Below are positions 1 to 30,109 of a stretch of DNA of 40,893 bases, in pieces. The stretch covers positions 1 to 40,893 of the forward strand of contig CAZENZ010000001.1 in assembly GCA_964513705.1 (NCBI GenBank), written 5' to 3'. The notes below the pieces were generated by a model. The model ran no database searches. It had not been told where the DNA came from and saw only the letters and a list, made by a program, of their open reading frames with translations. The stretch is from an uncultured Gammaproteobacteria bacterium. Lineage in GTDB: Bacteria > Patescibacteriota > Patescibacteriia > 2-12-FULL-60-25. The stretch's first letter is position 1. Each line of letters opens with the position of its first letter. The translations under genes were made by a program, and so were the position numbers.

Positions 1-2
1 TA

Positions 3-242
3 GGGATCGTCGAAGTAACCGAAACAGCTAAGCCGGATAAAACCGCCACGGAAGGTGACTGGGTGTCGGTTCGGGTAAGGGCGGTGGTCCCTTGTGGTCG
101 TTCCCTTGGACTGGAGGAGGTTCGTAATACGCCCGGTCTCAATACGATGCAGCTCGTGACCCATTCACGCCTGTCTGTCCAAACAGTCAGCGAAGCACAG
201 TGGAACGCGATTCTCAAGTATACGAAAACGTCTATTTCCTGA
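3..242 (+). CDS. 3' end of a CDS entering from the left edge; C-terminus resembles an EVE (PUA-like) domain
   Basis: Frame 3 is open from the window edge to TGA at 240-242 (80 codons). My translation: ...DWVSVRVRAVVPCGRSLGLEEVRNTPGLNTMQLVTHSRLSVQTVSEAQWNAILKYTKTSIS*. The SRLSVxxVxxxxWxxI tail matches what I remember of EVE-domain proteins (PF01878). It is absent from the ORF track because no start lies in the window. Confidence 0.45.
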   Translation, partial: GIVEVTETAKPDKTATEGDWVSVRVRAVVPCGRSLGLEEVRNTPGLNTMQLVTHSRLSVQTVSEAQWNAILKYTKTSIS

Positions 243-257
243 TATTCTAGACCAGCT

Positions 258-902
258 ATGGATCTTCCATCTTCGAGCACATCTCTTCCTGTATCCGAAC
301 CGCCGCGTGATCGCCGCAAAGCGAGTATTAAGTTTGCATTAGAGCTCCTTCAGATCTTGGCGATTTCGCTCGCCATTATCATTCCTGTTCGTTACTTCCT
401 TATTCAACCGTTCTACGTGAAGGGGGCGAGCATGGAGCCGAATTTCTTCGATCACGAATATCTCATCATCGATGAGCTGAGTTATCGTCTGAATGATCCT
501 CAGCGTGGCGACATCGTTGTTTTTAAGTATCCAAAAGATCCGACCCAGTATTTCATTAAGCGCGTGATTGGCATGCCTGAGGAGACGGTTGAAATCATTG
601 ATGGCAAGGTTCGTATCTACAATAAAGAGCATCCAAATGGGTTTTTTCTCGATGAAACTGGCTACATCGACGGCGTCTTTACGAGTAGTCGTCAGATCCA
701 GCCACTCAAGAAAGGTCAGTACTATCTGATGGGAGACAATCGTCCGGCGAGCTTGGATTCTCGTATTTTTGGTCCGGTGGAGCGTGACTTTATTGTGGGG
801 AAGGTTTTGTTACGTGGTTATCCGGTTGATCGTTGGAAAGTCTTTAAGTCGTTTACCTATCCCGCACCGTCCGCGACGCATAGCTCGACAACTGCCTCAT
901 AA
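258..902 (+). CDS. lepB: Signal peptidase I (S26 family)
   Basis: N-terminal TM helix, then the catalytic Ser box GASMEPNF. Also KRVIGMPEETVEI (Lys box) and GDNRPASLDSR, the classic LepB boxes. Confidence 0.9.
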   Translation: MDLPSSSTSLPVSEPPRDRRKASIKFALELLQILAISLAIIIPVRYFLIQPFYVKGASMEPNFFDHEYLIIDELSYRLNDPQRGDIVVFKYPKDPTQYFIKRVIGMPEETVEIIDGKVRIYNKEHPNGFFLDETGYIDGVFTSSRQIQPLKKGQYYLMGDNRPASLDSRIFGPVERDFIVGKVLLRGYPVDRWKVFKSFTYPAPSATHSSTTAS

Positions 903-947
903 TTTGGCTATTCTCAGACATCCTTTTTAAGACGCCACCTTCTCTCT

Positions 948-2330
948 ATGCCTACCGCTCCTAAACCGAAGGCTGACAAACCAGCAGCCGAAGCCGCTCC
1001 AAGTAAAAAAGCACCACAGCCCGTATCTCTTGTGCGTGGCATGCGTGATTTGCTGCCAGGTGATCAGCCCTACTGGAAGAAGGTCTATGATGCCTATGAT
1101 CGTGTGGCCGGGGCCTATGGCTTTGACCGTATTGATACTCCACTCATCGAAGAGCAATCCCTCTTTGTGCGTGGTGTGGGAAAGGTGACGGATATCGTGG
1201 AAAAAGAAATGTTCAGCTGGGAAACGCAGGGAGGCGAACATGTCGCTCTTCGCCCAGAAGGGACGGCTTCAGCCGTTCGCGCCTACGTGCAGCACGGCAT
1301 GTTGAACCTGCCTCAACCAGTGAAACTCTGGTACGCGGGTCCGATGTTCCGTTACGAGCGTCCACAAGCCGGACGTTTCCGTCAGCACTTCCAGGGTGGC
1401 TTTGAGTGCTTGGGTGAGGCCGATGCGATTGTGGATGCACAGCTGATCGTGATTTCACACGCGATTCTCAAGGATCTCGGATTGGAGCCGGTCGTGAAGA
1501 TCAACTCGCTCGGTTCACCAGAATCACGCACCAACTACAAGAATGCGCTCGTAGCCTACTTCCGTTCCAAACGCAACGTGCTCACCGAAGAAGATAAGAA
1601 GCGCTTGCTCAAGAATCCACTTCGCCTGCTCGATTCCAAAGAAGAGCACATGAAAGAGCTTAAGGCTGAGGCTCCGCAAATTGTTGATTGGCTAGACGAG
1701 GAATCGAAGGCGCACTTCATGCGCGTGCTCGAATATCTTGATGAGGTAGGTGTTCCTTACGAGCTTGATCCATACCTCGTGCGTGGTCTCGATTACTATA
1801 CCAAGACCGTTTTTGAATGGTATGCTTCGAGCGATGATCAAGAATTGGCGCAATCTGCGTTGGGAGGTGGTGGCCGCTACGACGACCTGGTGGAGCAACT
1901 TGGTGGTCGCCCAACACCAGCCGCGGGCTTTGGTCTTGGGCTTGATCGTATCGTCTCGCGTCTCAAGGAACTTGATCCGGCATTGGGAACGCAGATTCGG
2001 AAAGCCGACGTCTTTATTGCGCAGTTGGGAGAAATGGGGAAAAAGCGCGCGCTCGCTCTCTTTGAAGAATTCCGTCAGGCAGGGATCGCGGTCGGGGAGT
2101 CATTTGCAAAGACGTCTCTTAAATCTCAAATGGAGGTCGCGAATCGCCGGGGAGCACGCTACGCACTCCTCCTCGGACAAAAAGAAGTCCTAGACGGGAC
2201 GGTGCTGGTGCGTGACATGGATTCCGGTACGCAAGAGGTCTTTGACGCCAAAAAAGCGGTTCATGAAATGCGCAAGAAGTTAATTGCGAATGCGGCGGCA
2301 GCTGAGGCGGCAAAAGCCGAGACGGAATAA
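948..2330 (+). CDS. hisS: Histidyl-tRNA synthetase with a Lys/Ala/Pro-rich N-terminal extension
   Basis: Class II aaRS / HisRS motifs: RGMRDLLP, FRYERPQAGRFRQHFQ, GGGGRYDDL, GFGLGLDRI. The C-terminal anticodon-binding region is present. The first ~27 aa (PTAPKPKADKPAAEAAPSKKAPQP) are low complexity. Confidence 0.95.
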   Translation: MPTAPKPKADKPAAEAAPSKKAPQPVSLVRGMRDLLPGDQPYWKKVYDAYDRVAGAYGFDRIDTPLIEEQSLFVRGVGKVTDIVEKEMFSWETQGGEHVALRPEGTASAVRAYVQHGMLNLPQPVKLWYAGPMFRYERPQAGRFRQHFQGGFECLGEADAIVDAQLIVISHAILKDLGLEPVVKINSLGSPESRTNYKNALVAYFRSKRNVLTEEDKKRLLKNPLRLLDSKEEHMKELKAEAPQIVDWLDEESKAHFMRVLEYLDEVGVPYELDPYLVRGLDYYTKTVFEWYASSDDQELAQSALGGGGRYDDLVEQLGGRPTPAAGFGLGLDRIVSRLKELDPALGTQIRKADVFIAQLGEMGKKRALALFEEFRQAGIAVGESFAKTSLKSQMEVANRRGARYALLLGQKEVLDGTVLVRDMDSGTQEVFDAKKAVHEMRKKLIANAAAAEAAKAETE

Positions 2331-2350
2331 CTTAGCCCCGAAGATCGAAA

Positions 2351-2380
2351 AAGAGCTCCATTGTGGGCTCTTTCTTCGTT
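2351..2380 (+). terminator. Candidate intrinsic terminator after hisS
   Basis: aagagc (2351-2356) pairs with gctctt (2367-2372). An inner cca/tgg pairing has one bulged t. The hairpin is followed by the T-rich tract tcttcgtt. Confidence 0.45.
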
Positions 2381-2407
2381 GACGGTGTTCTGATTTTCGC
2401 GTAGGAT
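2379..2407 (+). promoter_or_regulatory. Sigma70-like promoter for rpsU-yqeY (and possibly the downstream locus)
   Basis: TTGACG (2379-2384), a 17-nt spacer, then TAGGAT (2402-2407). An AAGGAG Shine-Dalgarno sits at 2455-2460, 8 nt before the rpsU ATG at 2469. Confidence 0.45.
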
Positions 2408-2468
2408 GGATCTCGACATTCGTGGCAGTTTAGCCCCGGTGATCCTCATATAGAAAGGAGCGTGTCTT

Positions 2469-2720
2469 ATGGCCGAAGTGAAACGTAAGAAAGGTGAAGC
2501 GTTTGATGCCTTGTTGCGTCGTTTTCAGCGTCGCCACCAGGAGAGTGGAAAGAACATTGAAGTCAAACGTCGTCGTTTTCACGCGAAGGCAGTTAATGAA
2601 AACCGTCGCCGTGAGAGTGCGCTGTACCGTGTCACGAAGCGCAACAAGCTAACGTATCTTTTGAAGACCGGACAGGTCCAAGAAGATGCTCGCCGTCCTT
2701 CACACCGTAAATCATCATAA
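2469..2720 (+). CDS. rpsU: 30S ribosomal protein S21
   Basis: Small, very basic protein. VKRKKGEAFDALLRRFQRR...RRRFHAKAV...ENRRRE is the typical S21 pattern, and a strong SD lies upstream. Confidence 0.85.
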   Translation: MAEVKRKKGEAFDALLRRFQRRHQESGKNIEVKRRRFHAKAVNENRRRESALYRVTKRNKLTYLLKTGQVQEDARRPSHRKSS

Positions 2721-2722
2721 CG

Positions 2723-3160
2723 ATGACTATCCTCGAACGGATTGATGCTGACTTTAAAGAGGCGATGAAAACCAAAGATGAACTGGCATTGTCCGTTCTT
2801 CGCTTGGTCAGAACCGCTTTAAAGAATAAGCAGATCGATCTTGGTCACGCGCCTGATCAGGCGGAGACTGAACAAGTCTTACGCACCATGATCAAACAGT
2901 ACCAGGATGCGTTAACTGATTTCTCTTCAGCTGGTCGACAAGACCTGGTCGAGCGTCAGCAAAAGGAAATCGATCTCATCGCTGTGTATCTTCCACCGCC
3001 ACTGTCTGCCGAAGATCTTCGAAAGATTGTTCACGAGGCTCTCGCCGCGTCGGACATCAAGGAAGTTGGTCGTGCAATGGGGGTGGCGATGAAGGCGGTG
3101 AATGGCCGAGCGGATGCCAAAGACGTTCGTCCACTGGTCGAGAGTTACTTTCACCCGTAA
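2723..3160 (+). CDS. yqeY: GatB/YqeY-domain protein
   Basis: The N-terminus ILERIDADFKEAMKTKDELALSVLRLVRTALKNKQID and the 145-aa length are typical of the YqeY family (PF09424). It sits directly after rpsU, as in many Firmicutes and CPR genomes. Confidence 0.85.
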   Translation: MTILERIDADFKEAMKTKDELALSVLRLVRTALKNKQIDLGHAPDQAETEQVLRTMIKQYQDALTDFSSAGRQDLVERQQKEIDLIAVYLPPPLSAEDLRKIVHEALAASDIKEVGRAMGVAMKAVNGRADAKDVRPLVESYFHP

Positions 3161-3211
3161 ACTGTTCTTGTAGAGTCCGTGTCCCTTTGAATCCCAACAT
3201 CTTTCTTTCCC

Positions 3212-5146
3212 ATGCTTGAGAAAGGTTGCAGGAGCGTCACAGCCGCTATGTCAGCACCCGTACGATTATTCGCCCGGGTGTTGCTAGCGGCTGTGTTCGT
3301 GCTCGCGCTTGTTTGGACGTTGCCCGCGACCGTCCACGCGCAATCTGCCCCAGCCCCCGACGCAGCGGCTCAGTTGAGTGATGCGGCGACCGCCGCTGGT
3401 GTCGATGGATCGGTGTCGCTCATGACGCTGATTGGTCGTATCATAAACGTGATTTTCGGATTCTTGGGGGTGATTTTGCTTGGGTATATTTTGTACGCGG
3501 GATACCTGTGGATGACGGCACAGGGCGATCCGAAACAGGTCCAAACAGCAAAAGACACCATTCGTAATGCCATTATTGGATTGGTCATCTTTGCTTCTTC
3601 GTTTGCGATTGTGAGTTTTATTCTTGCGCAGCTTGCGGGAGTTGCGACCGGTGAAGGGTTATTTGGAACTGGAGGGGGTGATGACTTGGGATTGAGCGGA
3701 TTCCCTGATCGTGCTGGTGCGTTGGGCGATGTCATTCGTGATGTTTATCCAATGCCTGGTTCACGTGATGTCCCACGCAACACCAGCATCATGGTGACAT
3801 TTGCGCAACCGATCAAAATCGATTCGTTTATTCGTGGTTATGACGATCATGGTACGCCGGGTGATTTGAGCGACGATGTTGCAACGAGTACGCGTATTGG
3901 GCTGAACACGGATAATATTCGCATTTATCGCACTTCTGAAGGACGCACGCGTGCGCTTACAACGGAGCAAGTTCGTGTGCGCTTTACCCCAGATCGTCTG
4001 ACATTCGTGATGCGTCCAGTTGAGTATCTTGGGAGTTCGGTCGAGCCACAAGACTACACGGTTGAACTTACGGGTGGTCCAACGGGGATCAAACTGGAAG
4101 ATGGATCGGCGGTATTTCAGGGTCGTGCGTCGCGTGGATATCGTTGGGCTTTCCAAGTTTCAACGGTAGTAGATCTCACCCCGCCAAAAGTAGTGAGTGC
4201 GATTCCTGCCTCCGGTGGAAGATATGCGCCAAATATCATCGTCCAGGTCAACTTCAATGAAGCAGTTGATCCGACGAGCGCGGCTGGGCTTGTGCGTGAT
4301 GGTGGAGCGGGCTTCGATAACATTGAAGTCTCTGCTCGACCGTTGGCTGGAGGCGCTTCAGTTCGTCCCGCGGGTGAATTCAAAGTTTCGAATGCCTACA
4401 CCACGGTTGAGTTCATGACGAACTTGGCCTGTGGAGTGAATAGCTGCGGTCGACAAATCTTCTGTCTGCCATCGGATTCCGCGATTCGTGTGGATGTGAA
4501 AGCGGCGACATTGGAAACAGCAAGTAGTTCACAGGCAGCGATTGTACGTGGGTTATATGATGGAGTTGTAGATGTCGCGAACAACTCACTCGATGGAAAT
4601 GCTAATGATCGTGCGCAGGGTCCACCGGCTGATAACTACACCTATAACTTTACAACGCTCACGGATCCCGATCGAAGTGCGCCGTTCATTCGAGCCTTTG
4701 TGCCGGCGCCAGATACGGGACTCATCCCGGTAGATCAGATTCCGTCGGCTGATTTTAATGGGATCCTTCAGGCATCTACTGTGAACTCGGGGAATATCAA
4801 ATTATTGTTGAATGAGCCACCAACCGATACGTTCTGGTTCCGTCCACGTATGGTGAACGTCGTAGCAGGGCTGCCAGTAACGATTGGTCAGCCGGCTTCA
4901 TCCAGTCGTGCTTTGATTGACCATCGTGTCTACGCTGCCGCAACACCACGGTTTGCGCCGGAGTACTATCCACAGTTTGGTTCAGGCGTGCAGAATATCT
5001 ATCAGAACTGCTTCCATCCAACGTCGTCCGATAACTCAACAAGTGAATGTCGTGGAACGCCGGATCGGCCAAACTGTTGCTTTGTGGAAGGTGTTCCGAC
5101 GCCAAGTGCGAGCGCTTGCCCTTATCCTAATCCTTCACGGCCATGA
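3212..5146 (+). CDS. Exported protein: signal peptide + T4SS-pilin-like module + Gly linker + Big_5/SbsA-type Ig-like domains + Cys-containing C-terminal region
   Basis: The likely true start is ATG 3248, with AGGAG at 3230-3234, giving MSAPVRLFARVLLAAVFVLALVWTLPATVHA|QS. The pilin-like module is LIGRIINVIFGFLGVILLGYILYAGYLWMTAQGDPKQVQTAKDTIRNAIIGLVIFASSFAIVSFIL. Ig-like segments carry the Big_5 signature (YPMPGSRDVPRNTSIMVTFAQPIKIDSF; SAIPASGGRYAPNIIVQVNFNEAVDPTS). The stop overlaps the next start (ATGA at 5143-5146). Confidence 0.85.
   Translation: MLEKGCRSVTAAMSAPVRLFARVLLAAVFVLALVWTLPATVHAQSAPAPDAAAQLSDAATAAGVDGSVSLMTLIGRIINVIFGFLGVILLGYILYAGYLWMTAQGDPKQVQTAKDTIRNAIIGLVIFASSFAIVSFILAQLAGVATGEGLFGTGGGDDLGLSGFPDRAGALGDVIRDVYPMPGSRDVPRNTSIMVTFAQPIKIDSFIRGYDDHGTPGDLSDDVATSTRIGLNTDNIRIYRTSEGRTRALTTEQVRVRFTPDRLTFVMRPVEYLGSSVEPQDYTVELTGGPTGIKLEDGSAVFQGRASRGYRWAFQVSTVVDLTPPKVVSAIPASGGRYAPNIIVQVNFNEAVDPTSAAGLVRDGGAGFDNIEVSARPLAGGASVRPAGEFKVSNAYTTVEFMTNLACGVNSCGRQIFCLPSDSAIRVDVKAATLETASSSQAAIVRGLYDGVVDVANNSLDGNANDRAQGPPADNYTYNFTTLTDPDRSAPFIRAFVPAPDTGLIPVDQIPSADFNGILQASTVNSGNIKLLLNEPPTDTFWFRPRMVNVVAGLPVTIGQPASSSRALIDHRVYAAATPRFAPEYYPQFGSGVQNIYQNCFHPTSSDNSTSECRGTPDRPNCCFVEGVPTPSASACPYPNPSRP
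3422..3640 (+). other. T4SS-pilin-like (TrbC/VirB2-type) two-helix module of the 644-aa protein
   Basis: Two hydrophobic helices flank a short polar loop, YAG(Y/F)LWMTAxGD...KAxKTIRNAIIGL. This matches my memory of Pfam T4SS_pilin (PF18895), which is common in CPR genomes. Confidence 0.6.
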
Positions 5147-8100
5147 ACTTTCGTCGCCTTTTCTGTTTGTTGGGGCTAGTCCTCGCCATAGGCGGGGTTT
5201 TAGCCTTTTTGCCGGCGACACCGGTCATGGCTCAGGTGGATGCTGGATTTCAGGAGGTTGGAGCCGCCGCACAGCTGGGCACAGCTGATCCAAGAATTAT
5301 CGCTGCGCGTATCATTAATATTTTCTTGGGAACGCTTGGTACGATTCTGTTGTGTCTGGTGTTGTATGCGGGGTTTCTCTGGATGACGGCGGGTGGTGAT
5401 GCGGAGAGAGTAGAAAAAGCCCAGAAGACGATTCGCAATGCGATTATTGGGCTCATTATCATCGTGTGTTCCTGGGGATTCGTTACTTTCATTTTGAATA
5501 AGTTACTCGATGCAACGCGCGGAAGTGGGGGATTTGTTGCGACGAGTGATAACGGAGGAGGCGGTGGCGAATTAGGTGCAGCCGGTGGATCATTAGCGTT
5601 TAATGTTCGCTCGATCACGCCGTCTGGACCGATCCGTATTCGCAATGCGGAAGTGCGTTTCTTGTTGAGCCGTGAAGTTTTGGCGAGTTCTGCGACGAGC
5701 TCGATCACCGTTGTTCGTGCCTCGGATGAGCAGCCGGTCGAAGGTACAGTTACGGTGGCGGATAGTTTGGTGACGTTTGTTCCAACTCAAGCCTGTCCTG
5801 CTCCTAACGGAAACCGTAAGTGTTTTGCTGAAAATACCGATTACATTGCGCGCGTTGGACGGGGCTTACGCTCACGTTCAGGGCTCACGGTTGCTTGTGG
5901 GAGAACGGCGCCGCCATGTGAGGGGCGGTTCCGTACGGGGAGCTTGGTAGACGTAAGTTCGCCAAATTCCGCTATCACAAATCCACTCGATGGGCAGGGA
6001 ATTCCTCTGGGAGATACGGTACGTGTCACCGTTCGTTCCAGGGACGATGGAGGTATCTCCATCACAGAGGTGTTAGTGGATGGTCGCATGATCGGTCGTG
6101 ATGCGGCGACTGCTACTACCACTCCTCTTGAATATGACGCGACCGTGAACTGGGATACGCGTGGAGTTGCAACTGGTACGCATCGCATCGAAGCCCGGGT
6201 GTTCGATATCGATTCAAACAGTGTGACGACCACCCCGATTACGGTGGCTGTGCGTCCACGAAGTTATTTCAATGGCGTTCAAGATAATGGGGCTCCTGAA
6301 GTTGGTTGTGGTGGTCCTGGTCAGCCATTGTGTGTGGGGAGCGCTTGTACGACGGGTCGTTCTTGTTTGAGTGGTCTGTGCGAAGGGGGCGTATGTCGTG
6401 CGCGTCCTGAAACAGAAACAGGATGTGGCGGTCCTGGGCAGCTTGCCTGTATTGGGGCTGTCTGTACGCGTGGAGATGGTTGTTTGAGCGGACGGTGTGA
6501 AGGCGGTATTTGTCGCGGGCGAGGTGAAACGGGTGTCGACTGTGGGGGCGCAGGAGGTGGCGCGTGTGCCGGAGCGATGTGTACGCGTGGAGTCGATTGT
6601 GCAAGTGGTTTGTGTGTCGCTGGACGATGTATCGAGCAGCCAATTATTGGATCGTTCAATCCTGTAAATGGTCGCCCTGGTACCTATGTCACGATTAGTG
6701 GGGTGAATTTTGGAACTACCACCGGTCAGGTGACGTTTGGTGGCCGTCTAGCAACTGCGCCAGCCTCCTGCGGATCATCGACGGCTTTCTGGTCGCCGAC
6801 GCAGATTGTGGTGGCTGTTCCAGAAGGGGCGACTACTAGCACGATTCAGGTGACGCATGCCACGAATCGCATGACGGACGCCACGAATGACGAACGTGGT
6901 CCGCGTTTGGCTGATTTCGTAGTAAATGGTGTGGCACGTCCGGGGTTGTGTGTCATTCGTCCAGGAACCGGAACGGTCGGTGATCGCTCGCGTTTGGCGG
7001 TGGCTGGCGTGAACCTGGGTAGTACCGCGGGGCGATTGTTTTTCAACGATCATGATGTGGCGATTAGTGCCTGGCGTCCAACGGGTGTGGATCTGACAGC
7101 GCCACTTGTCCCACCGGGTGCCTATTCGGTCCGTGCTCGTATTGGAGAGCTGGAATCAAATCCGGTTGGTTTTCATTTTAACGATCGCGTCATTACCGCG
7201 CCTCCGATTATTGATCAGCTGCGTCCGGCGACTGGTACGGTTGGATCGTATGTCACGCTGCTTGGTCGAAACTTTGGAAGTGGCGGTCGTGTGTTCTTTC
7301 GCAATCCGTTGACCAACGCCATTGGTGAGGCGGATACGCGCTTCCCGGCGCAGTGTGGAAGCACTTTCTGGGCGGATACATCTGTGATGATCAAGGTGCC
7401 ACGTGCGTTGCGTGGCGGATTGGGGGAGGAGCAGGCGGTGCGTGGAGGGGCATACGAAATTTATTTGCAGCGTGATGGGATTACGCAGAGTAATCGTGTT
7501 CCATTTACGGTATTTGATGGTGCGCCTGGCCCAGGTGTGTGTTCTATTCAGCCAATTGCGGGTCCGGTTGGAACGGGAGTCACGATTTATGGTGAGCGGT
7601 TTGGTTCAGTGGTCGGTGCCGTATCCTTTGCAGGGACCACGTCCTCGCGTCCTTTAGCGTTCTTGTCGAGTGAAAGCTGGCGCGATGGAGAGATTCGTAC
7701 GCGTGTGCCAACCGGTGCGTTGACAGGCGGAGTGCGCGTTACGGTGGCCGGTCAAGACTCGAATGATGCTTTTTTCTCGGTAGCGAACTGTGTTAGTACG
7801 CCGGGTATTTGTGGACCTTCCCTTGCCTGTTGTCCGGACGGAAGCTGCGCGGTGGCTGGTACTTGCCGCGCGTTGGGAGTGGCTACGAGTACTTTTGCCT
7901 GGAGATCGTCAACCGGACGGTTGTATCAGTCACCACGTGTGGTGGAAGAGTGTAATAACGAATTACCACCTTCTCCAAGCCCACGGAGCCTTTCGACCTG
8001 TGTGAATGCTCAGGCAGTTGTACGCTTTACGACACATATTGAAGCTTCGACGATTAATCCGAGTAATGTGATTATCCGTCGCTGTACCGGAAGAACCGGC

Positions 8101-16146: not shown

Positions 16147-17091
16147 ATGGACCTTCAATCACCCGTCAATCTTCCAACGCAGCCAGCGCCTGCCTCGCCA
16201 CCGGTACCACCGATTAACTCTCCAGTACCTCCACCGATTCAGGCGATGCCAAGCGCGCCGGCGGCTATGCCGAGCGCTGCTGCGGATGATATGTTTTCGG
16301 GAGTAGATAAGGTTCCCGCTCCTTCTCCGATGTCTGCGCCACAGCCAATGTCTGCGCCTGTTCCTCCGATCGTTGCGAGCCAGGCTCCGATGCCTGCGAC
16401 TCCGGCAGCGCCTTCTCCTATGGCGCCACAGCGTGTGTTATCTCCTTTACCGGAGCCGCATCATCCACCGGTGTTGCACTACGTGTTGATTGCCTTGGCA
16501 GTAGTTGCGGTGTTGGGTGTGATTGCGGGAGGGGTTTGGTTTTTCGCCATTCGCCGTCCAGCTCAGCAGGTGATGGAGGCGTTGCCAGTTGCACCGGTTG
16601 CGACGTCAACGAATGATGCTATGACACCTTCTTCGGCTGCACCGATGGTTCCAGCGGATGAGCCTGTTGGAGGTACGACGGAATTCGGTGAGCCAGAAGA
16701 AATTCCTTCCAAGCCAGTCGTGACGCCTCCAGAGGGCGCCACGGTTCCACTGCCATCTTCGATTGATCCAAATGGTGTAGGACTGGGAGCCCCGACTTCA
16801 GCCACGGCAGATCAGGGTACGCCGCAGCCTGCCCCTGTTCAACCAGCTCAACCGGTTGATCAAGATGCGGATGGTCTGTCAGACGCGCGTGAAATCGAGT
16901 TAGGAACGAATCCAGCGCTCGCAGATACGGATAGCGATGGACTCACGGATGGAGATGAAGTACTAAAGCATCGAACCAACCCTCTTGTTCCAGATACGGA
17001 TGGTGATGCATATCCTGATGGGGTCGAGGTGCAAAAAGGCTTTAACCCACTTGGTCCAGGTAAGTGCGCAAATCCATCGTGTACGTTGTAG
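16147..17091 (+). CDS. Single-pass membrane protein: Pro-rich N-terminal region, TM helix, TSP3 repeats, Cys-loop C-terminal tail
   Basis: The ~110-aa N-terminal region is Pro/Ala/Met-rich (MSAPQPMSAPVPP...). TM helix: VLHYVLIALAVVAVLGVIAGGVWFFAI. TSP3 repeats: DQDADGLSDARE, DTDSDGLTDGDE and DTDGDAYPDGVE. The protein ends GFNPLGPGKCANPSCTL. Confidence 0.8.
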   Translation: MDLQSPVNLPTQPAPASPPVPPINSPVPPPIQAMPSAPAAMPSAAADDMFSGVDKVPAPSPMSAPQPMSAPVPPIVASQAPMPATPAAPSPMAPQRVLSPLPEPHHPPVLHYVLIALAVVAVLGVIAGGVWFFAIRRPAQQVMEALPVAPVATSTNDAMTPSSAAPMVPADEPVGGTTEFGEPEEIPSKPVVTPPEGATVPLPSSIDPNGVGLGAPTSATADQGTPQPAPVQPAQPVDQDADGLSDAREIELGTNPALADTDSDGLTDGDEVLKHRTNPLVPDTDGDAYPDGVEVQKGFNPLGPGKCANPSCTL

Positions 17092-17109
17092 AATTTTTTC
17101 TTTGTTCGT

Positions 17110-18525
17110 ATGGCACTTGCACCTTCTTCATCATCTCCTACTGCAGCCGGAGTGGCTGTCAAAAAAATGCCTGAGATCATCACGATCCCAGAGCAGTTCT
17201 ATGGAGTTGCCTTGAAATTGAAGGCGCTCACTTCCGCGGAAAAAGATGAGGCGGCACGTGTGCCGCCTCCGGCGCCTGCTGCTCCGAATCCAGCTGCCTT
17301 GATCCGTCCACCAGAAGCGCGTCGCACACCATGGGCAATGATCGGTGTTGTCGCAGGGGTGATTGTGCTGAGTGGGGGAGGATTTGTGTACTTCAACCGA
17401 GACGCCTTGTTTCGTAAGCAGGTTCCGGTGGTGGTCGTCGAACCAAAACCGATTCCTCAGGCGCCAAGCGGCTTATCAGCGCTGCCCAGTCAGGGAGCGA
17501 TTTCCTTGGCATGGACAGATGCGGCGAGTAACGAGCAGGGCTATCACATTGAGCGCAAAGATGGGGCGCTTGATTCAACCAATCCGTTTACCCGTATTAC
17601 AACGTTGCCCGCGAATAGCAATGCGTTTATTGATGTGACCGTGCAGCCGAGCACCTCTTATAGTTATCATGTGATCGCGACGGGTGAAGGTGGGGATTCG
17701 GCTCCATCGAACGATATGTCGGCGACGACTCCAGCATTACCGACACCGGAAGTGCCCAAGCCAACTCTTCCACCTGGCGGTCTTGACACCGACTCGGACG
17801 GTCTGACCGATGTTGAAGAGTCTTTGTATAATACAAACGCACAAAGACCTGACAGTGATGGTGATCGTTTTCTCGATGGCAACGAAGTGTTTCACTTGTA
17901 TAATCCAGCGACGGCGGCACCTGGTAAGCTCCTTGAATCGGGTCTCGTTCGTTCTTTTACCGCGGCGAGTGGTTGGGTGATGTATGTTCCGGCATCATGG
18001 ACCACTGGACCTGATCCGAGCGATGCGACCCGTGTCTTGCTCGAGACGGGCAGGGGCGAACGTTTCATTGTTTCTGTTGAATCCAATCCATCGAAACAAG
18101 ACGTGATTCCATGGGTTTCGGCACGCATTAATCAGCCCGTAGAAGCGCTCGGTGAGTTCACTACAAAGGGTGGTTTGCGCGGGGTGTATGCTCCTGATCG
18201 TATGCAAGCTTGGCTCGCCTGGGGGGATGCGGTGTTTCATATTACGTTCGATCTTCAGGCGCAGCCATTCGTCAACTTCCGCACGACCCTGGAAATGATG
18301 CTAAACTCTCTTGCGTTGAATGGAGCGGCGATTATTCCGACAACGCTTACCCCGTCTAACTCTGGCCCTGGATCGCTTTTGAATCTCCCGACGAGTTCAA
18401 CGCCAGATATGCTTTCCACGACCGCTACAACGACGGCCACTACTACAACAACGACAACACCGGTCACTGTAACCAATACAACCACCTCTACGCCGCCTGC
18501 GGCCAGCACTTCTACCACCCCATGA
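17110..18525 (+). CDS. Single-pass membrane protein: FN3 domain + TSP3 repeats + unassigned globular domain + Thr-rich tail
   Basis: TM helix: WAMIGVVAGVIVLSGGGFVYF. FN3 signature: PQAPSGLSALPSQGAISLAWTDAASNEQGYHIERKDG...YSYHVIATGEGGDSAPS. TSP3 repeats: DTDSDGLTDVEE and DSDGDRFLDGNE. The tail is TTATTTATTTTTTTPVTVTNTTTSTPP. The stop overlaps the ybeY start (ATGA at 18522-18525). Confidence 0.8.
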   Translation: MALAPSSSSPTAAGVAVKKMPEIITIPEQFYGVALKLKALTSAEKDEAARVPPPAPAAPNPAALIRPPEARRTPWAMIGVVAGVIVLSGGGFVYFNRDALFRKQVPVVVVEPKPIPQAPSGLSALPSQGAISLAWTDAASNEQGYHIERKDGALDSTNPFTRITTLPANSNAFIDVTVQPSTSYSYHVIATGEGGDSAPSNDMSATTPALPTPEVPKPTLPPGGLDTDSDGLTDVEESLYNTNAQRPDSDGDRFLDGNEVFHLYNPATAAPGKLLESGLVRSFTAASGWVMYVPASWTTGPDPSDATRVLLETGRGERFIVSVESNPSKQDVIPWVSARINQPVEALGEFTTKGGLRGVYAPDRMQAWLAWGDAVFHITFDLQAQPFVNFRTTLEMMLNSLALNGAAIIPTTLTPSNSGPGSLLNLPTSSTPDMLSTTATTTATTTTTTTPVTVTNTTTSTPPAASTSTTP

Positions 18526-18962
18526 TCCGTTTTTTGACTACAAGGCTTCCCTCGGAACTCCAAGAGACAGATCTGTCGCGTATCGGTAATGAACTGACAG
18601 CTCTTTTGCGTGTGAAAAAACCGGTGGAAATTTCCTTATCGTTTGTTTCCTCTCCGGCGATACAGGTATTAAACAAGCAGTATCGTAAAAAAGACCGTCC
18701 AACGGATGTTTTGTCGTTTTCAAGTCTTGAGGCGGCGCTCCCAAAAGGTATGGCAGAGTCCTCTTCCTGGGGCGACATCATCGTGTGTCCAGCTTACGCT
18801 AAGGTAGAGGCGAAGCGTCGCAGTATCTCGCTTCACGAAGAATTGGTGCGTCTGATAGTGCATGGTGTATTGCATCTGGCGGGGTACGATCATGCAACGA
18901 AACAAGATGAGCTCACGATGTTTGGTCTTCAGGAGCGTGTTGTTGAGCGGGTAACCGCCTAA
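18522..18962 (+). CDS. ybeY: rRNA maturation endoribonuclease YbeY
   Basis: The zinc-binding motif HGVLHLAGYDH is present, with TDVLSF upstream. The 146-aa length is typical of UPF0054/YbeY. Confidence 0.9.
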   Translation: MIRFLTTRLPSELQETDLSRIGNELTALLRVKKPVEISLSFVSSPAIQVLNKQYRKKDRPTDVLSFSSLEAALPKGMAESSSWGDIIVCPAYAKVEAKRRSISLHEELVRLIVHGVLHLAGYDHATKQDELTMFGLQERVVERVTA

Positions 18963-18966
18963 GTCT

Positions 18967-19341
18967 ATGTCGAGTCTTTTTCGATTCTTACGAAGTGTGA
19001 GGCATGCTGTACGGGGTGTCTTTTCTGTCTATCGAACGGAGCAAAATTTTCGCATCCAATGTGTGGGGGCGCTCTTCGCGAATACCCTCGCTCTTGCCTT
19101 GCCACTCACATGGGATAAGCGCTTGCTTATTCTCATTGTGTCTGTATCTGTCCTGGTGCTAGAATTGCTCAACAGCGCGATCGAACGCCTGCTTGACCTG
19201 TTAAAGCCACGGCTTAATGAGTACGCTGGAGAGGTCAAGGATGTGATGGCTGGAGCTGTATTGATTGCCTCTATTTCCGCTGTTGTGGTGGGTGTTTGTA
19301 TCTTCTGGCCCTATCTGACTCCTTTTCTTGTCCGCCTATGA
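18967..19341 (+). CDS. dgkA: Diacylglycerol / undecaprenol kinase (DgkA family)
   Basis: A 124-aa protein with three predicted TM helices and the conserved ELLNSAIERLLD motif. It occupies the canonical position after ybeY. Confidence 0.85.
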   Translation: MSSLFRFLRSVRHAVRGVFSVYRTEQNFRIQCVGALFANTLALALPLTWDKRLLILIVSVSVLVLELLNSAIERLLDLLKPRLNEYAGEVKDVMAGAVLIASISAVVVGVCIFWPYLTPFLVRL

Positions 19342-20612
19342 AAGATCACCTGATCGTTGGTGTCGATCTCGGGAGCTCGGCCATCCGGCTCGCGGTTGGT
19401 CAGGTATCGATCGGTTCGGACAAGCGAGAGGTTTTGAGTGTGATTGGGGCGGTCGAGGTGCCGTCTCAGGGGATTTCTAAAGGATCGGTGAATTCACTAG
19501 AAGATGTCGTCAGTTCAATTTCGGCGTCGCTCGAGCAAATCGAGCGCCAAATTGGCTTGCCGATTTCTGAAGTCTATTTGTCGATTGGCGGGGTGCATCT
19601 CACGATTCAGGCAGCGAAGGGAGTGATCGGAGTTTCTCGCCCGGAGGGGGAGATTCGTGAAGAGGATGTGCATCGTGCTCTTGAGGCAGCACGTTCGGTG
19701 GTGAACCCAGCCAACCAGGAAATCATTCACATCTTGCCGAAGGCGTTTAGTGTCGACGGTCAGACAGGGATTAAGGATCCAGTCGGAATGCAGGGGATTC
19801 GTTTGGAGGCGGAAGCGCAGATTATTCAGGGTTTTTCGGCGCATGTTCGCAATATCACGAAAGCCGCTTTCCGCACCGGTCTCGAGGTGCGTGAATTGGT
19901 GTTTGCGCCGCTCGCTTCAGCTGAGGCGGTGACGACACCACGTCAACGCGATGTTGGAACGGTTGTTATTAATGTCGGGGCTGGTACAACGAGCGTTGCG
20001 GTGTTCGAAGAAGGGGACTTGCTCCATGCGGCGATTTTTCCGTTGGGTGCGGACCATATTACTTCAGATCTCGCGATTGGCTTGCGTACGTCACTTGAGC
20101 TTGCCGAGCACATCAAGCGTCACTTTGCGAGTGCTCATGCTGATTCTGCGAATCGTTTCGAAGAGATTGATTTGCGTGAACTGGGCGGCGACCACACAGA
20201 GATTGTCTCGCGACGTTTTGTTTCTGATATTGCGCAAGCTCGTGCCGAGGAAATTTTTGAAAAAGTCGAAAAGGAGCTCAAGAAAATTGAACGAAGCGGA
20301 ATGCTGCCAGCGGGGGCGATTCTCACAGGTGGTGGGGTGAAGCTTGGTGGTATGACAGAAATCGCGCGTCAGGTCCTGCGTTTGCCAGTGTCGGTTGGAA
20401 CGCCTGCTGGAATCACGACGCCACTCACGGAACTCGTTCAAGATCCAGCGTTTTCCACAGCCGTAGGACTTGTCTTGTGGGGCTATAACGCGGAGCGCGA
20501 AGATGCTGGTGTCTCGACGAAAAATGGCTCAGGTTACGCAGCGAAAGGTGGAGAGGCGTTAAAAAAAATCAGTGAACCTCTCAAACGAATTTTTAAATCG
20601 TTCTTACCGTGA
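19338..20612 (+). CDS. ftsA: Cell division protein FtsA
   Basis: Actin-like ATPase motifs: IVGVDLGSSAIRLAVG, VINVGAGTTSVAVF and GGGVKLGGM. I place the start at ATG 19338 (MKDHLIVGVDLG), which overlaps the dgkA TGA (ATGA), rather than the track's upstream 19296. Confidence 0.92.
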   Translation: MKDHLIVGVDLGSSAIRLAVGQVSIGSDKREVLSVIGAVEVPSQGISKGSVNSLEDVVSSISASLEQIERQIGLPISEVYLSIGGVHLTIQAAKGVIGVSRPEGEIREEDVHRALEAARSVVNPANQEIIHILPKAFSVDGQTGIKDPVGMQGIRLEAEAQIIQGFSAHVRNITKAAFRTGLEVRELVFAPLASAEAVTTPRQRDVGTVVINVGAGTTSVAVFEEGDLLHAAIFPLGADHITSDLAIGLRTSLELAEHIKRHFASAHADSANRFEEIDLRELGGDHTEIVSRRFVSDIAQARAEEIFEKVEKELKKIERSGMLPAGAILTGGGVKLGGMTEIARQVLRLPVSVGTPAGITTPLTELVQDPAFSTAVGLVLWGYNAEREDAGVSTKNGSGYAAKGGEALKKISEPLKRIFKSFLP

Positions 20613-20625
20613 ACGATTTTTTCTC

Positions 20626-20654
20626 TTGACCCTGTCCGCACCGGTGAGTATGGT
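20626..20654 (+). promoter_or_regulatory. Sigma70-like promoter candidate upstream of ftsZ
   Basis: TTGACC (20626-20631), a 17-nt spacer, then TATGGT (20649-20654), all inside the 107-nt ftsA-ftsZ spacer. Confidence 0.35.
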
Positions 20655-20719
20655 GGCAGTGAACAACGTTTCTTCTCTCTATTGAGCCATTTTTGAACAC
20701 TCCTTGTAGACATTGTCCT

Positions 20720-22153
20720 ATGGCCGAAATCAAACCCGAAATCGAAGCGCTCGCCACCATCAAGGTGATTGGTGTTGGAGGCTCCGGTGGATCATCGCTG
20801 AATCGCATGATTGCTTCGAAGATTCGCGGGGTTGAGTTTATCGCCATGAATACGGACTTGCAGGCGCTGCATGCCTCGCAAGCCGGACAGAAGCTTCATA
20901 TTGGAAAGAGCATCACGCGTGGTCTTGGCGCTGGTATGGATCCAGAAGTGGGTCTTCACGCGGCTGAGGAAAGTCAAAATGAGATCAAAGAAATGCTGAA
21001 GGGCGCCGACATGGTGTTCATCACGTGTGGTCTTGGTGGTGGAACTGGATCGGGTGCGTCTCCGTATATCGCCAGCGTTGCAAAGGAAATGGGGGCACTC
21101 ACGGTCGCTGTTGTGACGCGTCCCTTTGGTTTCGAGGGTGCGCAGCGTCGCATGATCGCCGATGCTGCCTACGAAAAACTTGCCAATCAGGTCGACACCA
21201 TCGTCGCGATTCCTAACGATCGCATTCTCCAGATTATTGATCGCAAGACATCGTTGGTCGAAGCCTTCGAAATCGTGGATGATGTGTTGCGCCAAGGTGT
21301 GCAAGGGATTTCCGAGCTGATTACGGTTCCTGGGCTTATTAACGTCGACTTTGCGGACGTTCGTTCTGTTATGTTGAACCGCGGCTCCGCTCTCATGGGT
21401 ATCGGCCGTGGTCATGGTGACAACCGTGCCGCTGATGCCGCGAAAGCTGCTGTTGCATCGCCGCTCCTCGAAGTTTCCATTGACGGTGCCAAGGGGATCC
21501 TCTTCACGATTACCGGTGGTTCGAATCTCGGCATGTACGAAGTATCAGAGGCGGCAAAGGTTATTACTCAATCGGCTGATCCACAGGCAAAGGTTATCTT
21601 CGGTGCGATTATCGACGAATCGATGAAGGACGAGGTCAAAGTTACGGTTGTCGCGACAGGTTTCGAAACGCGTCCAGGGATGCCAAAGGCCAAGACCGTC
21701 CTTACGTCTGGCACTATTCAGCCACGTACGGGAACGATTTCGACGACGCCTCCTCCGGAGCCACTCGAAAAGTACTCGTTCCAAAACGCTCCTCGTGCTT
21801 CGGGAACTGTTCCAGCCGCCGCTCCAGCTCCACAGCAACCAAGCTACACGCAGCCTCAACCACAACAGCCTCAGCAGCAAGCACCGACCTACAGTAATTA
21901 CACCCAACAGCCGATTCAGCAGCAGTCTGAGTACGTGGAAGAGCCAGCTCCAGAGATCTACCGCAAACCACCAGCGCCAGCACCGGCCGCTCGTCAACCG
22001 CATGTGTCGCCGCCTTCTTATGCGGCTCCACAGTCTCAGCGTCCAGTAGCCCCACCCATTCCTCAGAAGCCGGTTCCTCCTCCGGCGCCCGCTGCTGCAT
22101 CGGACGAAGAAGATCTCGATATCCCGGCCTTTATCCGTAAGAAGTTGATGTAA
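20720..22153 (+). CDS. ftsZ: Cell division GTPase FtsZ with a long Pro/Gln-rich linker
   Basis: Motifs: [17 protein letters not shown], the tubulin signature [12 protein letters not shown] and NVDFADV. The C-terminal peptide is [12 protein letters not shown] prefer ATG 20720 (MAEIKPE...) to the track's TTG at 20693. Confidence 0.95.
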
Positions 22154-29255: not shown

Positions 29256-29310
29256 TGTGCGTTGATTTTAGCAGGAATTTCTTTTAATTGCTCGAGTTAG
29301 TCCATCAGCT

Positions 29311-29375
29311 GTTTGAAAACGAAGAGCGCACCGTCGAAGGAGTCGGGCGCGAGCACTCGCCTTGCGGCGGTGCGC
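29311..29375 (-). terminator. Candidate structured 3' end / terminator of the GC-rich lipoprotein gene
   Basis: On the minus strand, gcgcaccg (29375-29368) pairs with cggtgcgc (29333-29326) and is followed by tcttcgttttc. A second small hairpin, ctcgcg-gtg-cgcgag, lies at 29384-29398. Confidence 0.3.
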
Positions 29376-29410
29376 CCTTCTCCCTCGCGGTGCGCGAGAG
29401 TCGTTGTTTC

Positions 29411-29827
29411 TCACTCGCTTCCGAGTGGGTAGATGTTCGCCTCGGATGTGCCGGCGATCTGGCAGGTCATGGCGACGTCGCGGTCCCAGGCGAGGCCGAT
29501 CGCGTCGCGCTGCCTGCGCCAGACGTCCCACTGCGCGAGCTCGTTGGAGATCTCGTTCGCGTGCGCGCAGGCGTTGCGGCAGGCGTCCACACCCAGCTCG
29601 CAGGCCAGGCGGATCTGGGCCTGCAGGCCGTCCAGGGCGAGCGTGGCGTTGACCGTGTCTCCCTGGAGCCGCAGCCGCTGACTCCGCGAGATCTGGGCGG
29701 TGATGCCGCGGTCGATCGAGGGGCCGATGTTGCCGGCGCAGCCGGTCGCGGCGAGCGCGAAGGCGACGACGAGCAGGGCGCGGAGGGCGAGCGAGCGGAC
29801 GGTGTTGCGGAAGGTGCGCGTGTTCAT
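29411..29827 (-). CDS. Small putative lipoprotein (138 aa) in GC-rich islet 2
   Basis: ATG at 29827 with GGAG 9 nt upstream. The signal peptide and lipobox-like site are MNTRTFRNTVRSLALRALLVVAFALAATG|C. The mature part has further Cys residues (LACELGVDACRNACAH...MTC). Third codon positions are very G/C-rich. Confidence 0.6.
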   Translation of the reverse strand: MNTRTFRNTVRSLALRALLVVAFALAATGCAGNIGPSIDRGITAQISRSQRLRLQGDTVNATLALDGLQAQIRLACELGVDACRNACAHANEISNELAQWDVWRRQRDAIGLAWDRDVAMTCQIAGTSEANIYPLGSE

Positions 29828-30109
29828 GGGGTTCGTCTCCAGGCTCACGGGAAATGGGTTGAGGTTGTCCGCGAGCTTCCAAGCGTTCTCTTCTATACGA
29901 AAAGAAGATGTGGAAGCACACGTGTTTACAATCTTTTATTATAAAAGTCGGTTCCTACGACCAGACACGATCTCTGACTGTTAACTGGTATTAAATTATC
30001 ACATTTTCGACATTTTGTCAACCCTCTTTGACCAGCTCTTTTTTACGTTTTTCTGCCATATCTCGTTGCCACAGATCACGTTGTGTGCGGTACACGACGA
30101 CACATAATC

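Follow-up and report, generated by a model that had tools for sequence, protein, structure and literature searches.

Patescibacteria account for a large share of bacterial diversity. To our knowledge, all cultivated representatives live attached to other microbes, and the only factors known to act in this contact are type IV pili and the unusual type IV secretion system (T4SS) studied in Saccharibacteria; we know of no cultured member of class ABY1. Here we describe a cassette of five consecutive plus-strand genes, g1 to g5, located on contig CAZENZ010000001.1 (assembly GCA_964513705.1), of which positions 1 to 40,893 were analysed as a whole (the 41-kb window). Its first two products carry a helical hairpin of the kind found in VirB2/TrbC-type T4SS pilins, which occur in Patescibacteria and in integrative and conjugative elements of Mycoplasma. 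Patescibacteria widely possess T4SSs with VirB2-like pilins, and the Saccharibacterium Southlakia epibionticum cannot do without its system (PMC12102498, PMC10633639, PMC12857230). One survey of these systems counted matches to PF18895 as VirB2 homologues regardless of their proximity to virB4, and large fusions are not mentioned in it (PMC12102498).

Like these pilins, the products of g1 and g2 combine a cleavable signal peptide, two hydrophobic helices and a short basic loop. Unlike them, the hairpin carries a C-terminal ectodomain of 500 (g1) or 3,300 (g2) residues and its genes have housekeeping neighbours, the surrounding 10-20 kb being free of T4SS genes, whereas the known pilins are small and often arrayed in T4SS clusters (PMC12102498). 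Giant adhesins with immunoglobulin (Ig)-like repeats, such as SiiE, LapA-type RTX adhesins and sortase-anchored proteins of Gram-positive bacteria (PMC6272769, PMC10619420), resemble the system in huge size, Ig-like domains, calcium-binding elements and presumed surface location. They differ from it in that the cassette is without type I secretion system (T1SS), RTX or LPXTG features, its anchor is an N-terminal helical hairpin, and g2 is a fixed series of different modules, collinear throughout the clade, rather than many near-identical copies of one repeat. A Cys content of about 5%, a signal peptide and a proposed role in attachment link g2 to large cysteine-rich extracellular proteins of Peribacteria. 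Those were reported as a source of strain variation (PMC4736985), whereas g2 is one orthologue that is conserved, anchored by a pilin-type element and always accompanied by the same partners. Thrombospondin type-3 (TSP3) calcium-binding repeats, present in g3 to g5, are known in bacteria from Myxococcus CglD (gliding adhesion complex) and MtsD (cell-cell cohesion). Matches to these two proteins cover the repeats only (14.7-43.9 bits against cut-offs of 400 and 800), and while CglD and MtsD are lipoproteins of a diderm, g3 to g5 are bitopic and small. In modular type IV pilins, e.g. PilB and PilC of Streptococcus sanguinis, a functional module is grafted on the C-terminus of the pilin. The underlying concept is the same, an ectodomain for adhesion or binding joined to a pilin-type part that serves in the membrane or in assembly, but these pilins belong to another superfamily, with a single N-terminal helix, processing by prepilin peptidase and far smaller modules. 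By sequence criteria, the parts of the cassette belong to known families (VirB2-like pilin, Ig-like, fn3, TSP3). Taken as a whole, however, it lacks what defines a T4SS locus, a T1SS/RTX adhesin or a sortase substrate. A preliminary description of the locus had named an existing functional account of a close homologue as evidence against its hypothesis; a literature search found no paper describing the cassette.

We estimate a probability of about one half that the five genes are a conserved, operon-like cassette of ABY1 Patescibacteria that builds a membrane-anchored, multi-protein cell-surface structure. This reading is built on domain content, predicted topology elements, orthology, collinearity and conservation of the cassette across genomic contexts. 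Calling of open reading frames (ORFs) placed the genes at 3212..5146 (g1, 644 aa), 5143..15483 (g2, the giant, 3446 aa), 15484..16131 (g3, 215 aa, GTG start), 16147..17091 (g4, 314 aa) and 17110..18525 (g5, 471 aa), with spacers of -4 (g1-g2), 0 (g2-g3), 15 (g3-g4), 18 (g4-g5) and -4 nt (g5-ybeY). The positions, spacers and flanking genes proposed for the block beforehand were all recovered in ORF calls and Pfam searches. A 10.3-kb ORF such as g2 cannot occur by chance. All five products are predicted to be exported or membrane-anchored, and no enzyme domain was recognised in any of them by Pfam or NCBIfam, as had been noted from the sequence. The GTG start of g3 directly follows the g2 stop and leaves a 23-aa leader ahead of the transmembrane (TM) helix; in g3 orthologues the TM helix lies inside the first ~10 residues. 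The true start of g3 may be the ATG at ~15511, with a g2-g3 spacer of ~27 nt instead of 0.

Throughout the Uhrbacteria-like genomes of ABY1, the GTDB class that includes Uhrbacteria, the genes stand in the order lepB-hisS-rpsU-yqeY-g1-giant-TSP3-TSP3-g5-ybeY-dgkA-ftsA-ftsZ. More than 300 full-length homologues of g1 and more than 330 homologues of g5 were retrieved, both of near-constant length; those with a named source come from Patescibacteria, mostly Uhrbacteria. The same gene order is found at loci L003 (g1 79% identical) and L002 (47%) and at two loci reached via g5, L005 (48%) and L006 (41%), and tblastn detected g1 in L095 and L098. A scan of GTDB species genomes with a g5 profile yielded a relative in 229, from which 80 loci were kept for gene-order counts. 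ybeY lies 3' of g5 in all 80, dgkA, ftsA, ftsZ and nrdR come next wherever the contig continues, and the giant is upstream of g5 in every locus with more than 3 kb of sequence. One or two single-pass proteins fill the slot between giant and g5 in 61 of 63 loci, extra short ORF calls being present in the two exceptions; close relatives have a g3/g4-type pair there, distant ones a short TM protein and a g5 paralogue. The 4-nt overlaps g1/g2 and g5/ybeY recur in relatives, the latter in L005 and L006 as in the window. Identity to L002 is 62-70% for the housekeeping proteins of the window, 47% for g1 and 39% for the giant; the cassette therefore evolves faster than core genes.

From this gene-order comparison, the arrangement of the block is ancestral to a large clade. 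The GC content and skew of the five genes match those of their flanks. A recent horizontal insertion was considered and rejected, since composition equals that of the flanks and synteny is clade-wide; the initial wording, according to which the block is wedged into a housekeeping operon, suggests an insertion and is not supported. The proposal that the five genes are one unit held up. The gene-neighbourhood check gave the opposite of lost synteny, with the genes syntenic in every relative examined and the cassette kept in a second, unrelated context. Records of metagenome-assembled genomes (MAGs) with the locus are often titled "uncultured Gammaproteobacteria bacterium" (L007, L008, L010-L013 and many others); on these bulk third-party annotation (TPA) MAG records the label is evidently a placeholder or wrong.

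The second context was reached by searching with an unannotated module of g2, described below. The search led to ~1,000-aa proteins, one of them labelled Falkowbacteria, in which the module stands right after the signal peptide. Their neighbourhood reads relA (minus strand), a pilin and Big_5 protein of ~890 aa (F1), a pilin and TIG protein of ~1,950 aa (F2), the module protein of ~1,040 aa (F3), a ~105-aa TM protein, a TSP3 protein (F5) and a g5-like protein (F6), followed by clpP (minus strand), secD, secF, a Wzy_C/TPR gene, prepilin peptidase and ftsA. In BLAST comparison with the window, F1 corresponds to g1, F2 to g2 aa 1-2176, F3 to g2 from aa 2203 onward, F5 to g3/g4 and F6 to g5. Many copies of both the intact-giant and the split-giant arrangement were found in a metagenome scan, and two intermediates (L125, L140) have a split giant, yet retain ybeY/dgkA/ftsA downstream. 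Because the cassette persists in two neighbourhoods and with its giant either whole or divided, its genes are likely to work together; we regard this as our strongest evidence. The point of fission or fusion marks a domain boundary and is a probable protein-protein interface.

These observations bear directly on the view that g1 to g5 encode five independent adhesins that merely stand side by side and share no apparatus. No tool shows physical interaction between the products and all of their domains are common adhesin building blocks, but the same set and order is kept in at least two contexts, through fission/fusion of the giant and down to ~35-45% identity. We consider such an accidental assembly very improbable. 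A Wzy_C and TPR protein of 650-790 aa follows the split cassette in L088 (19020-22151) and also in L087, L089, L114, L145, L151 and L156. The presence of Wzy_C (O-antigen-ligase-like) beside proteins with Ser/Thr-rich tails, as in g5, might reflect O-glycosylation of surface proteins.

The g1 product matches T4SS_pilin (PF18895) with 38.1 bits against a cut-off of 26.6, Big_5, and the NCBIfam model NF045849 (40.7 bits, cut-off 40); the hairpin is named there "Mbov_0395 family pilin-like conjugal transfer protein". The protein consists of a signal peptide (aa 1-43), the VirB2-like hairpin (aa 70-144), a Gly-rich linker and an ectodomain of about four Ig-like domains (aa 171-600) with a small C-terminal Cys knot. 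Hydrophobic segments at 13-31, 73-91 and 116-134 correspond to the signal peptide and the two helices. A single GGAGFD is present in isolation, with no RTX run. In the AlphaFold2 (AF2) model, built with 68 homologues (pLDDT, the per-residue confidence, 82.5; pTM, the predicted TM-score, 0.71), the signal-peptide helix is predicted to be followed by the two hairpin helices (70-102 and 107-144), a Gly-rich linker modelled as disordered, some four beta sandwiches and a small end that contains Cys.

The hairpin (3416..3643, plus strand; aa 69-144) is the most conserved part of g1. Among the 68 homologues, column majority is 0.75 and 0.70 in its two helices, 0.58 overall and 0.36 in the signal peptide. 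Residues G75, G86, G97, A113, I122 and G123 are invariant and the loop motif WMTAxGD is conserved. Hairpins of g1 and g2 are 53% identical over 71 aa; apart from one weak Ig stretch, the two proteins share nothing else. Since the inter-helix loop of g1 is basic (K, K, R), a VirB2 topology is predicted, with the loop in the cytoplasm and both termini outside, and the whole C-terminal part would therefore lie outside the cell. The hairpin thus has a predicted topology able to hold the C-terminal ectodomain there. Judged from the alignment, the constraint on it appears greater than a passive anchor usually shows.

No T1SS, autotransporter, sortase, T4SS ATPase or type IV pilus genes were found in the 41-kb window. 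RTX nonapeptide runs (GGxGxD) are absent from the cassette products, and no membrane fusion protein (MFP) is encoded in the window; a lone ABC exporter (30609-32399), 12 kb from the cassette, stands without an MFP partner. The only LPXTG-like sequence of g2 is an internal LPLTG at aa 1308, and no product has a C-terminal sorting signal. VirB4 and VirB6/VirB3-like genes are found near the cassette neither in the window nor within +/-10 kb of inspected related loci. Sec and signal peptidase would be sufficient for export of g1 and g2; lepB lies four genes upstream, and its position is conserved.

A competing explanation takes g1 and g2 as modular T4SS pilins, i.e. substrates of a Patescibacterial T4SS encoded elsewhere in the genome. 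The hairpin would leave the membrane by extraction and become part of a VirB2-type pilus, or of its tip; the filament would thus display the Ig rod and the giant ectodomain, and g3 to g5 would be accessory or unrelated envelope proteins. This agrees with scores above both the Pfam and the NCBIfam thresholds for VirB2-like pilins, with the position of the hairpin, loop motif WMTAxGD included, as the most conserved part of g1, and with the wide occurrence and essentiality of such systems cited above. In solved conjugative pili (F-pilus) the pilin termini point outward, so a C-terminal graft is sterically conceivable. We know of no precedent, though, for a disulfide-rich C-terminal extension of 3,300 residues on a VirB2 pilin. 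The cassette never lies beside T4SS genes in inspected loci (+/-10 kb) or in the window, and its strict linkage to three bitopic TSP3 proteins would be left unexplained. Two cassette-bearing genomes, Uhrbacteria L036 (CG22_combo..._47_17) and Parcubacteria L077 (ADurb.Bin192), are VirB4-positive in the available part of Table S1 of PMC12102498, where the ABY1 entries listed show three Yes and one No for VirB4. This co-occurrence rests on two genomes of that table portion, and VirB4 is common in the phylum anyway. Taken together, assembly of g1 and g2 by a T4SS seems to us possible but doubtful. The VirB4 entries also narrow two statements of the preliminary description: "no known display machinery" and "self-contained" are true inside the 41-kb window, but not beyond it, where Sec/LepB suffices and, as far as the table portion goes, two cassette genomes have VirB4.

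The g2 product starts with a signal peptide and a VirB2-like hairpin at aa 52-117 (T4SS_pilin, 32.6 bits against 26.6), followed by an ectodomain of ~3300 aa; hydrophobic segments at 6-24, 52-70 and 97-115 correspond to the signal peptide and the two helices. With this, the signal peptides, two-helix modules and Ig-like domains ascribed earlier to both proteins are confirmed by Pfam, NCBIfam and hydrophobicity. Other Pfam matches of g2 are Big_7, several TIG and Big_5, along with sub-threshold DUF4215 and CarboxypepD_reg, and NCBIfam gives a weak match to the cysteine-rich repeat of Myxococcus proteins (TIGR02232 / DUF4215). The sole match in a PDB sequence search is the TIG-like domain of cyclodextrin glycosyltransferases. 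Cysteines number 171 (5%) and cluster at aa 400-500, 1400-1800 and 2400-3100. Sixteen of them fall in aa 401-500, where the translation has three tandem Cys-rich units of ~37 aa each (aa 385-500; 6295..6642, plus strand).

Alignment with the L002 orthologue (39% identity) runs end-to-end (query 1-3387), and g2 is collinear over aa 1-2950 in 14 complete orthologues. Because of this end-to-end collinear alignment, we regard the similarity as orthology and not as repeat shuffling. The least alignable part is the membrane-distal C-terminal region (14593..15480, plus strand; aa ~3150-3446). In the alignment of the 14 complete orthologues, the share of aligned cells is 43-64% in aa 3001-3400 and falls to 7% in the final 46 aa; 45 partial orthologues show the same falling alignability toward the distal end. 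Poor alignability is limited to the membrane-distal ~450 aa. The clade-wide collinearity would fit a structural organelle better than a typical fast-turnover adhesin. Positions 1-2186 of L002 (GCA_963851785.1) contain the end of another gene, of 3,289 aa, ~8 kb upstream of the cassette. This second giant is of surface type, with "GRYAYV...D(I/V)S(N/D)P" repeats and a Pro/Glu-rich tail, and is unrelated to g2 in BLAST.

The conservation peak of the giant (58% in bin 2201-2250) lies in the unannotated module mentioned above, which spans g2 aa 2195-2470 (11725..12552, plus strand; ~275 residues). It is characterised by the motif DAIGVRIxxNPxHxSxxxWY..QGFxGxPQ..VDGYEAIRDGxTxYV, a Cys linker and the motif K..RD.KR..DL....YP...S.WPSW..DP.N. 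No match was found in Pfam or in a PDB profile search. Its AF2 model has a pLDDT of 72.9, near 90 in the first 100 residues, and Foldseek gave no match to it better than E 0.05. Exhaustive phmmer search of 1.84 billion representatives (clusters at 50% identity) retrieved 1,403 clusters at E<=1e-3 and 375 at E<=1e-30. Among the 150 best matches, several of which are fragments, the module mostly occupies one of two sites: aa 2,050-2,450 (up to ~3,100) of giants of 3,100-4,600 aa, or aa ~30-260 of secreted proteins of 290-1,900 aa. At least 13 proteins are homologous to a longer query, g2 aa 1850-2470, and stand-alone module proteins occur in unrelated contexts at L103, L106, L107, L115 and L153. 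In F3-type proteins the module is the N-terminal domain, and it marks the split point of the giant in that lineage. Since it is N-terminal in many secreted proteins and located at the fission point, it is a good candidate for a docking or surface-retention domain. It is also a candidate new domain family. Two other assignments were tried and rejected. A type IV pilin head at g2 aa 2330-2440 (K..RD.KR..DL....YP) found no pilin in Pfam, PDB profile search or Foldseek, and the PLDc_2 match at aa ~2243-2287 (E 0.0023; 18 bits against a cut-off of 27) covers the profile tail only and is attributed to chance.

The three remaining proteins have one TM helix each, as judged by hydrophobicity. In g3 the N-terminal helix is followed by four strict TSP3 repeats (pattern DxDxDGxxDxxE) at aa 92, 114, 162 and 184, and TSP3_bac (PF18884) is matched with 77.3 bits against a cut-off of 25. 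The protein has the C-terminal motif YNPLGPGRCARPDCRI, and orthologues in the same slot have the same C-terminal Cys motif. g4 (TSP3_bac 49.3 bits, cut-off 25; 2 strict repeats) consists of a Pro-rich N-terminal tail of ~105 aa with a DDMFSGVDK motif, a TM helix at 109-127 and a region with the C-terminal motif FNPLGPGKCANPSCTL; its slot is conserved in relatives. The two are paralogues (29% over 243 aa) and both end with NPLGxGxCxxPxC. DDMFSGVDK of the g4 N-terminus (16147-16470) is similar to VDDIFAETDK in F5 of L088.

In g5 the TM helix is accompanied by an fn3 domain, and the C-terminal part comprises a conserved globular domain (~150 aa) with a tail rich in Thr and Ser. Alignment of 30 homologues reveals a conserved N-terminal motif, PEIxxIPExFYGVALK, and a conserved juxtamembrane motif. 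Searched as a single sequence, g5 matches fn3 (PF00041) with 20.2 bits, below the cut-off of 25; the 30-homologue profile matches FN3con (1e-12) and titin FN3 (2e-39) in the PDB, and at profile level the fn3 assignment is unambiguous. One strict and one degenerate TSP3 repeat are present. The single sequence has no PF18884 report at E<=0.01, and many g5 homologues carry PF18884. TSP3 repeats had been attributed to all three single-pass proteins; the attribution is upheld by Pfam for g3 and g4 and by motif and homologues for g5. Because fn3, TSP3 and Cys motifs are of extracellular character, g3 to g5 are predicted to be oriented with the N-terminus inside. Residues 1-75 of g5 (17110-17340) contain a conserved motif in the predicted cytoplasmic tail. 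It is tempting to imagine a cytoskeletal link of the g4 and g5 tail motifs through the neighbouring ftsA/ftsZ.

Conserved tails of this kind, together with the gene neighbourhood, suit another interpretation, in which the five proteins form an envelope scaffold (an S-layer-like coat, a wall-spanning fence or a division-site structure) rather than an attachment device, and linkage to ybeY-dgkA-ftsA-ftsZ reflects a housekeeping or cell-cycle role. The conserved cytoplasmic N-terminal motifs of g4 and g5 could serve to recruit a partner inside the cell. Across the clade, presence and collinearity hardly vary, protein lengths are constant, there are signals of co-transcription with core genes, and ftsA is close in both contexts. 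The ftsA neighbourhood may, on the other hand, be inherited order, and in the split lineage clpP, secDF and other genes lie between. Further, two S-layer proteins, SbsC and EA1, have Ig arrays that the ectodomain of g1 resembles. Foldseek with the g1 model retrieved only tandem Ig arrays: those of S-layer proteins (4uj6/4uic, E 1.6e-7 and 3.7e-7, TM-score 0.13-0.15; 8opr, E 1.4e-4, TM-score 0.10) and the BIg domains of mycobacterial LdtMt2. A PDB sequence search with g1 gave no match, and no SLH domain was found by Pfam. With TM-scores this low (about 0.10-0.3), the modelled likeness is best described as generic to tandem Ig domains. A Cys-rich protein of 3,446 residues would be atypical as a lattice-forming S-layer subunit, and a giant whose distal end varies is easier to reconcile with ligand contact than with a lattice. 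We therefore hold a scaffold function to be rather unlikely.

Returning to the favoured reading, a membrane-anchored surface structure, we propose the following arrangement. g1 and g2 would be exported by Sec, their signal peptides being cut by signal peptidase. The VirB2-like hairpin, as suggested by its topology and basic inter-helix loop, would stay in the cytoplasmic membrane with both ends outside, and the Gly-rich linker and everything C-terminal to the hairpin would project from the cell. g1 may form a short rod of about four Ig-like domains. g2 may form a very long stalk, rich in disulfides and largely free of repetition, that is made up of Ig-like and Cys-rich modules and varies at its distal end; the length and rigidity of both are presumed. 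At the membrane-proximal base, g3, g4 and g5 would be single-pass partners (N-terminus in, C-terminus out) acting via their TSP3 repeats and C-terminal domains; strict co-occurrence suggests that they hold or organise both hairpin proteins. A passive anchor would not need hairpins this well conserved, and their helices probably pack in a specific manner against one another, against further VirB2-like pilins or against an assembly factor. The 4-nt overlaps are kept and the block shows no excess of promoter- or terminator-like sites, so the structure would be co-expressed with the housekeeping genes, probably constitutively. We infer physical association, surface exposure and a contact function of the products. 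Most likely, the structure would serve to touch another surface, be it that of a host cell, that of a particle or the envelope layers of the cell itself. That it attaches the cell to a host is plausible.

Several points count against this proposal. The clade-wide collinearity of g2 is unusual for a host-specific adhesin, and the charges flanking the TM helices do not decide whether g3 to g5 have the N-terminus inside. That the five proteins interact is deduced from synteny alone, and the literature search found no expression, localisation or interaction result. Conservation of the hairpin could equally mean recognition by a T4SS, both cassette genomes matched in the available part of Table S1 having VirB4.

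A wider proposal is more speculative, and we put it forward only tentatively: the cassette would encode an unrecognised ABY1 surface organelle, shared by the lineages sampled, that reuses VirB2 hairpins in giant modular subunits, serves in host contact and employs the module for docking. It would represent either the first "modular T4SS pilins", on an essential T4SS pilus, or a T4SS-independent, hairpin-based fibre, with a 275-residue docking domain common to ~1,400 other secreted-protein clusters.

As to the surroundings of the cassette, the window is a plus-strand run of housekeeping genes with a GC content of ~0.52. By Pfam, the upstream neighbours are rpsU and yqeY (2469..3160, plus strand), which have the same order in L002, L003 and L090-L094, and farther upstream lie lepB (258-902) and hisS (948-2330), both on the plus strand. 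ybeY, dgkA and ftsA (18522..20612, plus strand; Pfam) stand downstream, followed by ftsZ and nrdR and, beyond these, htrA and pyk. The rpsU product (2469-2720) scores 21 bits with Pfam Ribosomal_S21, below the gathering score of 27; it is a divergent S21, and its position and length are kept in relatives. The string rpsU-yqeY...ybeY-dgkA resembles what we take to be the Firmicutes string rpsU-yqeY-(floA, nfeD, yqfC/D, phoH, pgpH)-ybeY-dgkA of the Bacillus subtilis map. By analogy with that presumed order, the cassette would fill an old variable slot between two conserved gene pairs. In a scan of 2200-21000, promoter- and terminator-like sites occur in numbers at or below shuffled expectation; no obvious internal terminator and no excess of either kind of site was found within the block, and the scan is otherwise uninformative. 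Searches of the whole window for tRNA genes and against Rfam found none and no match, respectively. At 29268-29944 two nearly co-extensive ORFs lie on opposite strands (217 aa minus, 218 aa plus), in the GC-richest kilobase of the window (0.58); neither has a Pfam match at E<=0.1.

Three features of the locus appear to be new: a VirB2-type hairpin as N-terminal anchor or assembly module of giant ectodomains, a fixed cassette of five to six genes conserved across ABY1 lineages, and an unannotated domain family. As far as can be judged from genomes, the cassette is probably a core, hitherto undescribed cell-surface structure of these relatives. It costs ~1.5% of a ~1 Mb genome, and all related loci examined have kept it. 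Its basis is the VirB2-like pilin fold, the same one that Saccharibacteria depend on, and it is located within a housekeeping gene string. Independently of function, a domain family of ~1,400 clusters and a clear gene fission/fusion event are documented. If the cassette does build an attachment or envelope organelle, it would offer a concrete and widespread ABY1 target for cryo-electron tomography, metaproteomics and host-range studies, and it would extend what pilin hairpins are known to carry.

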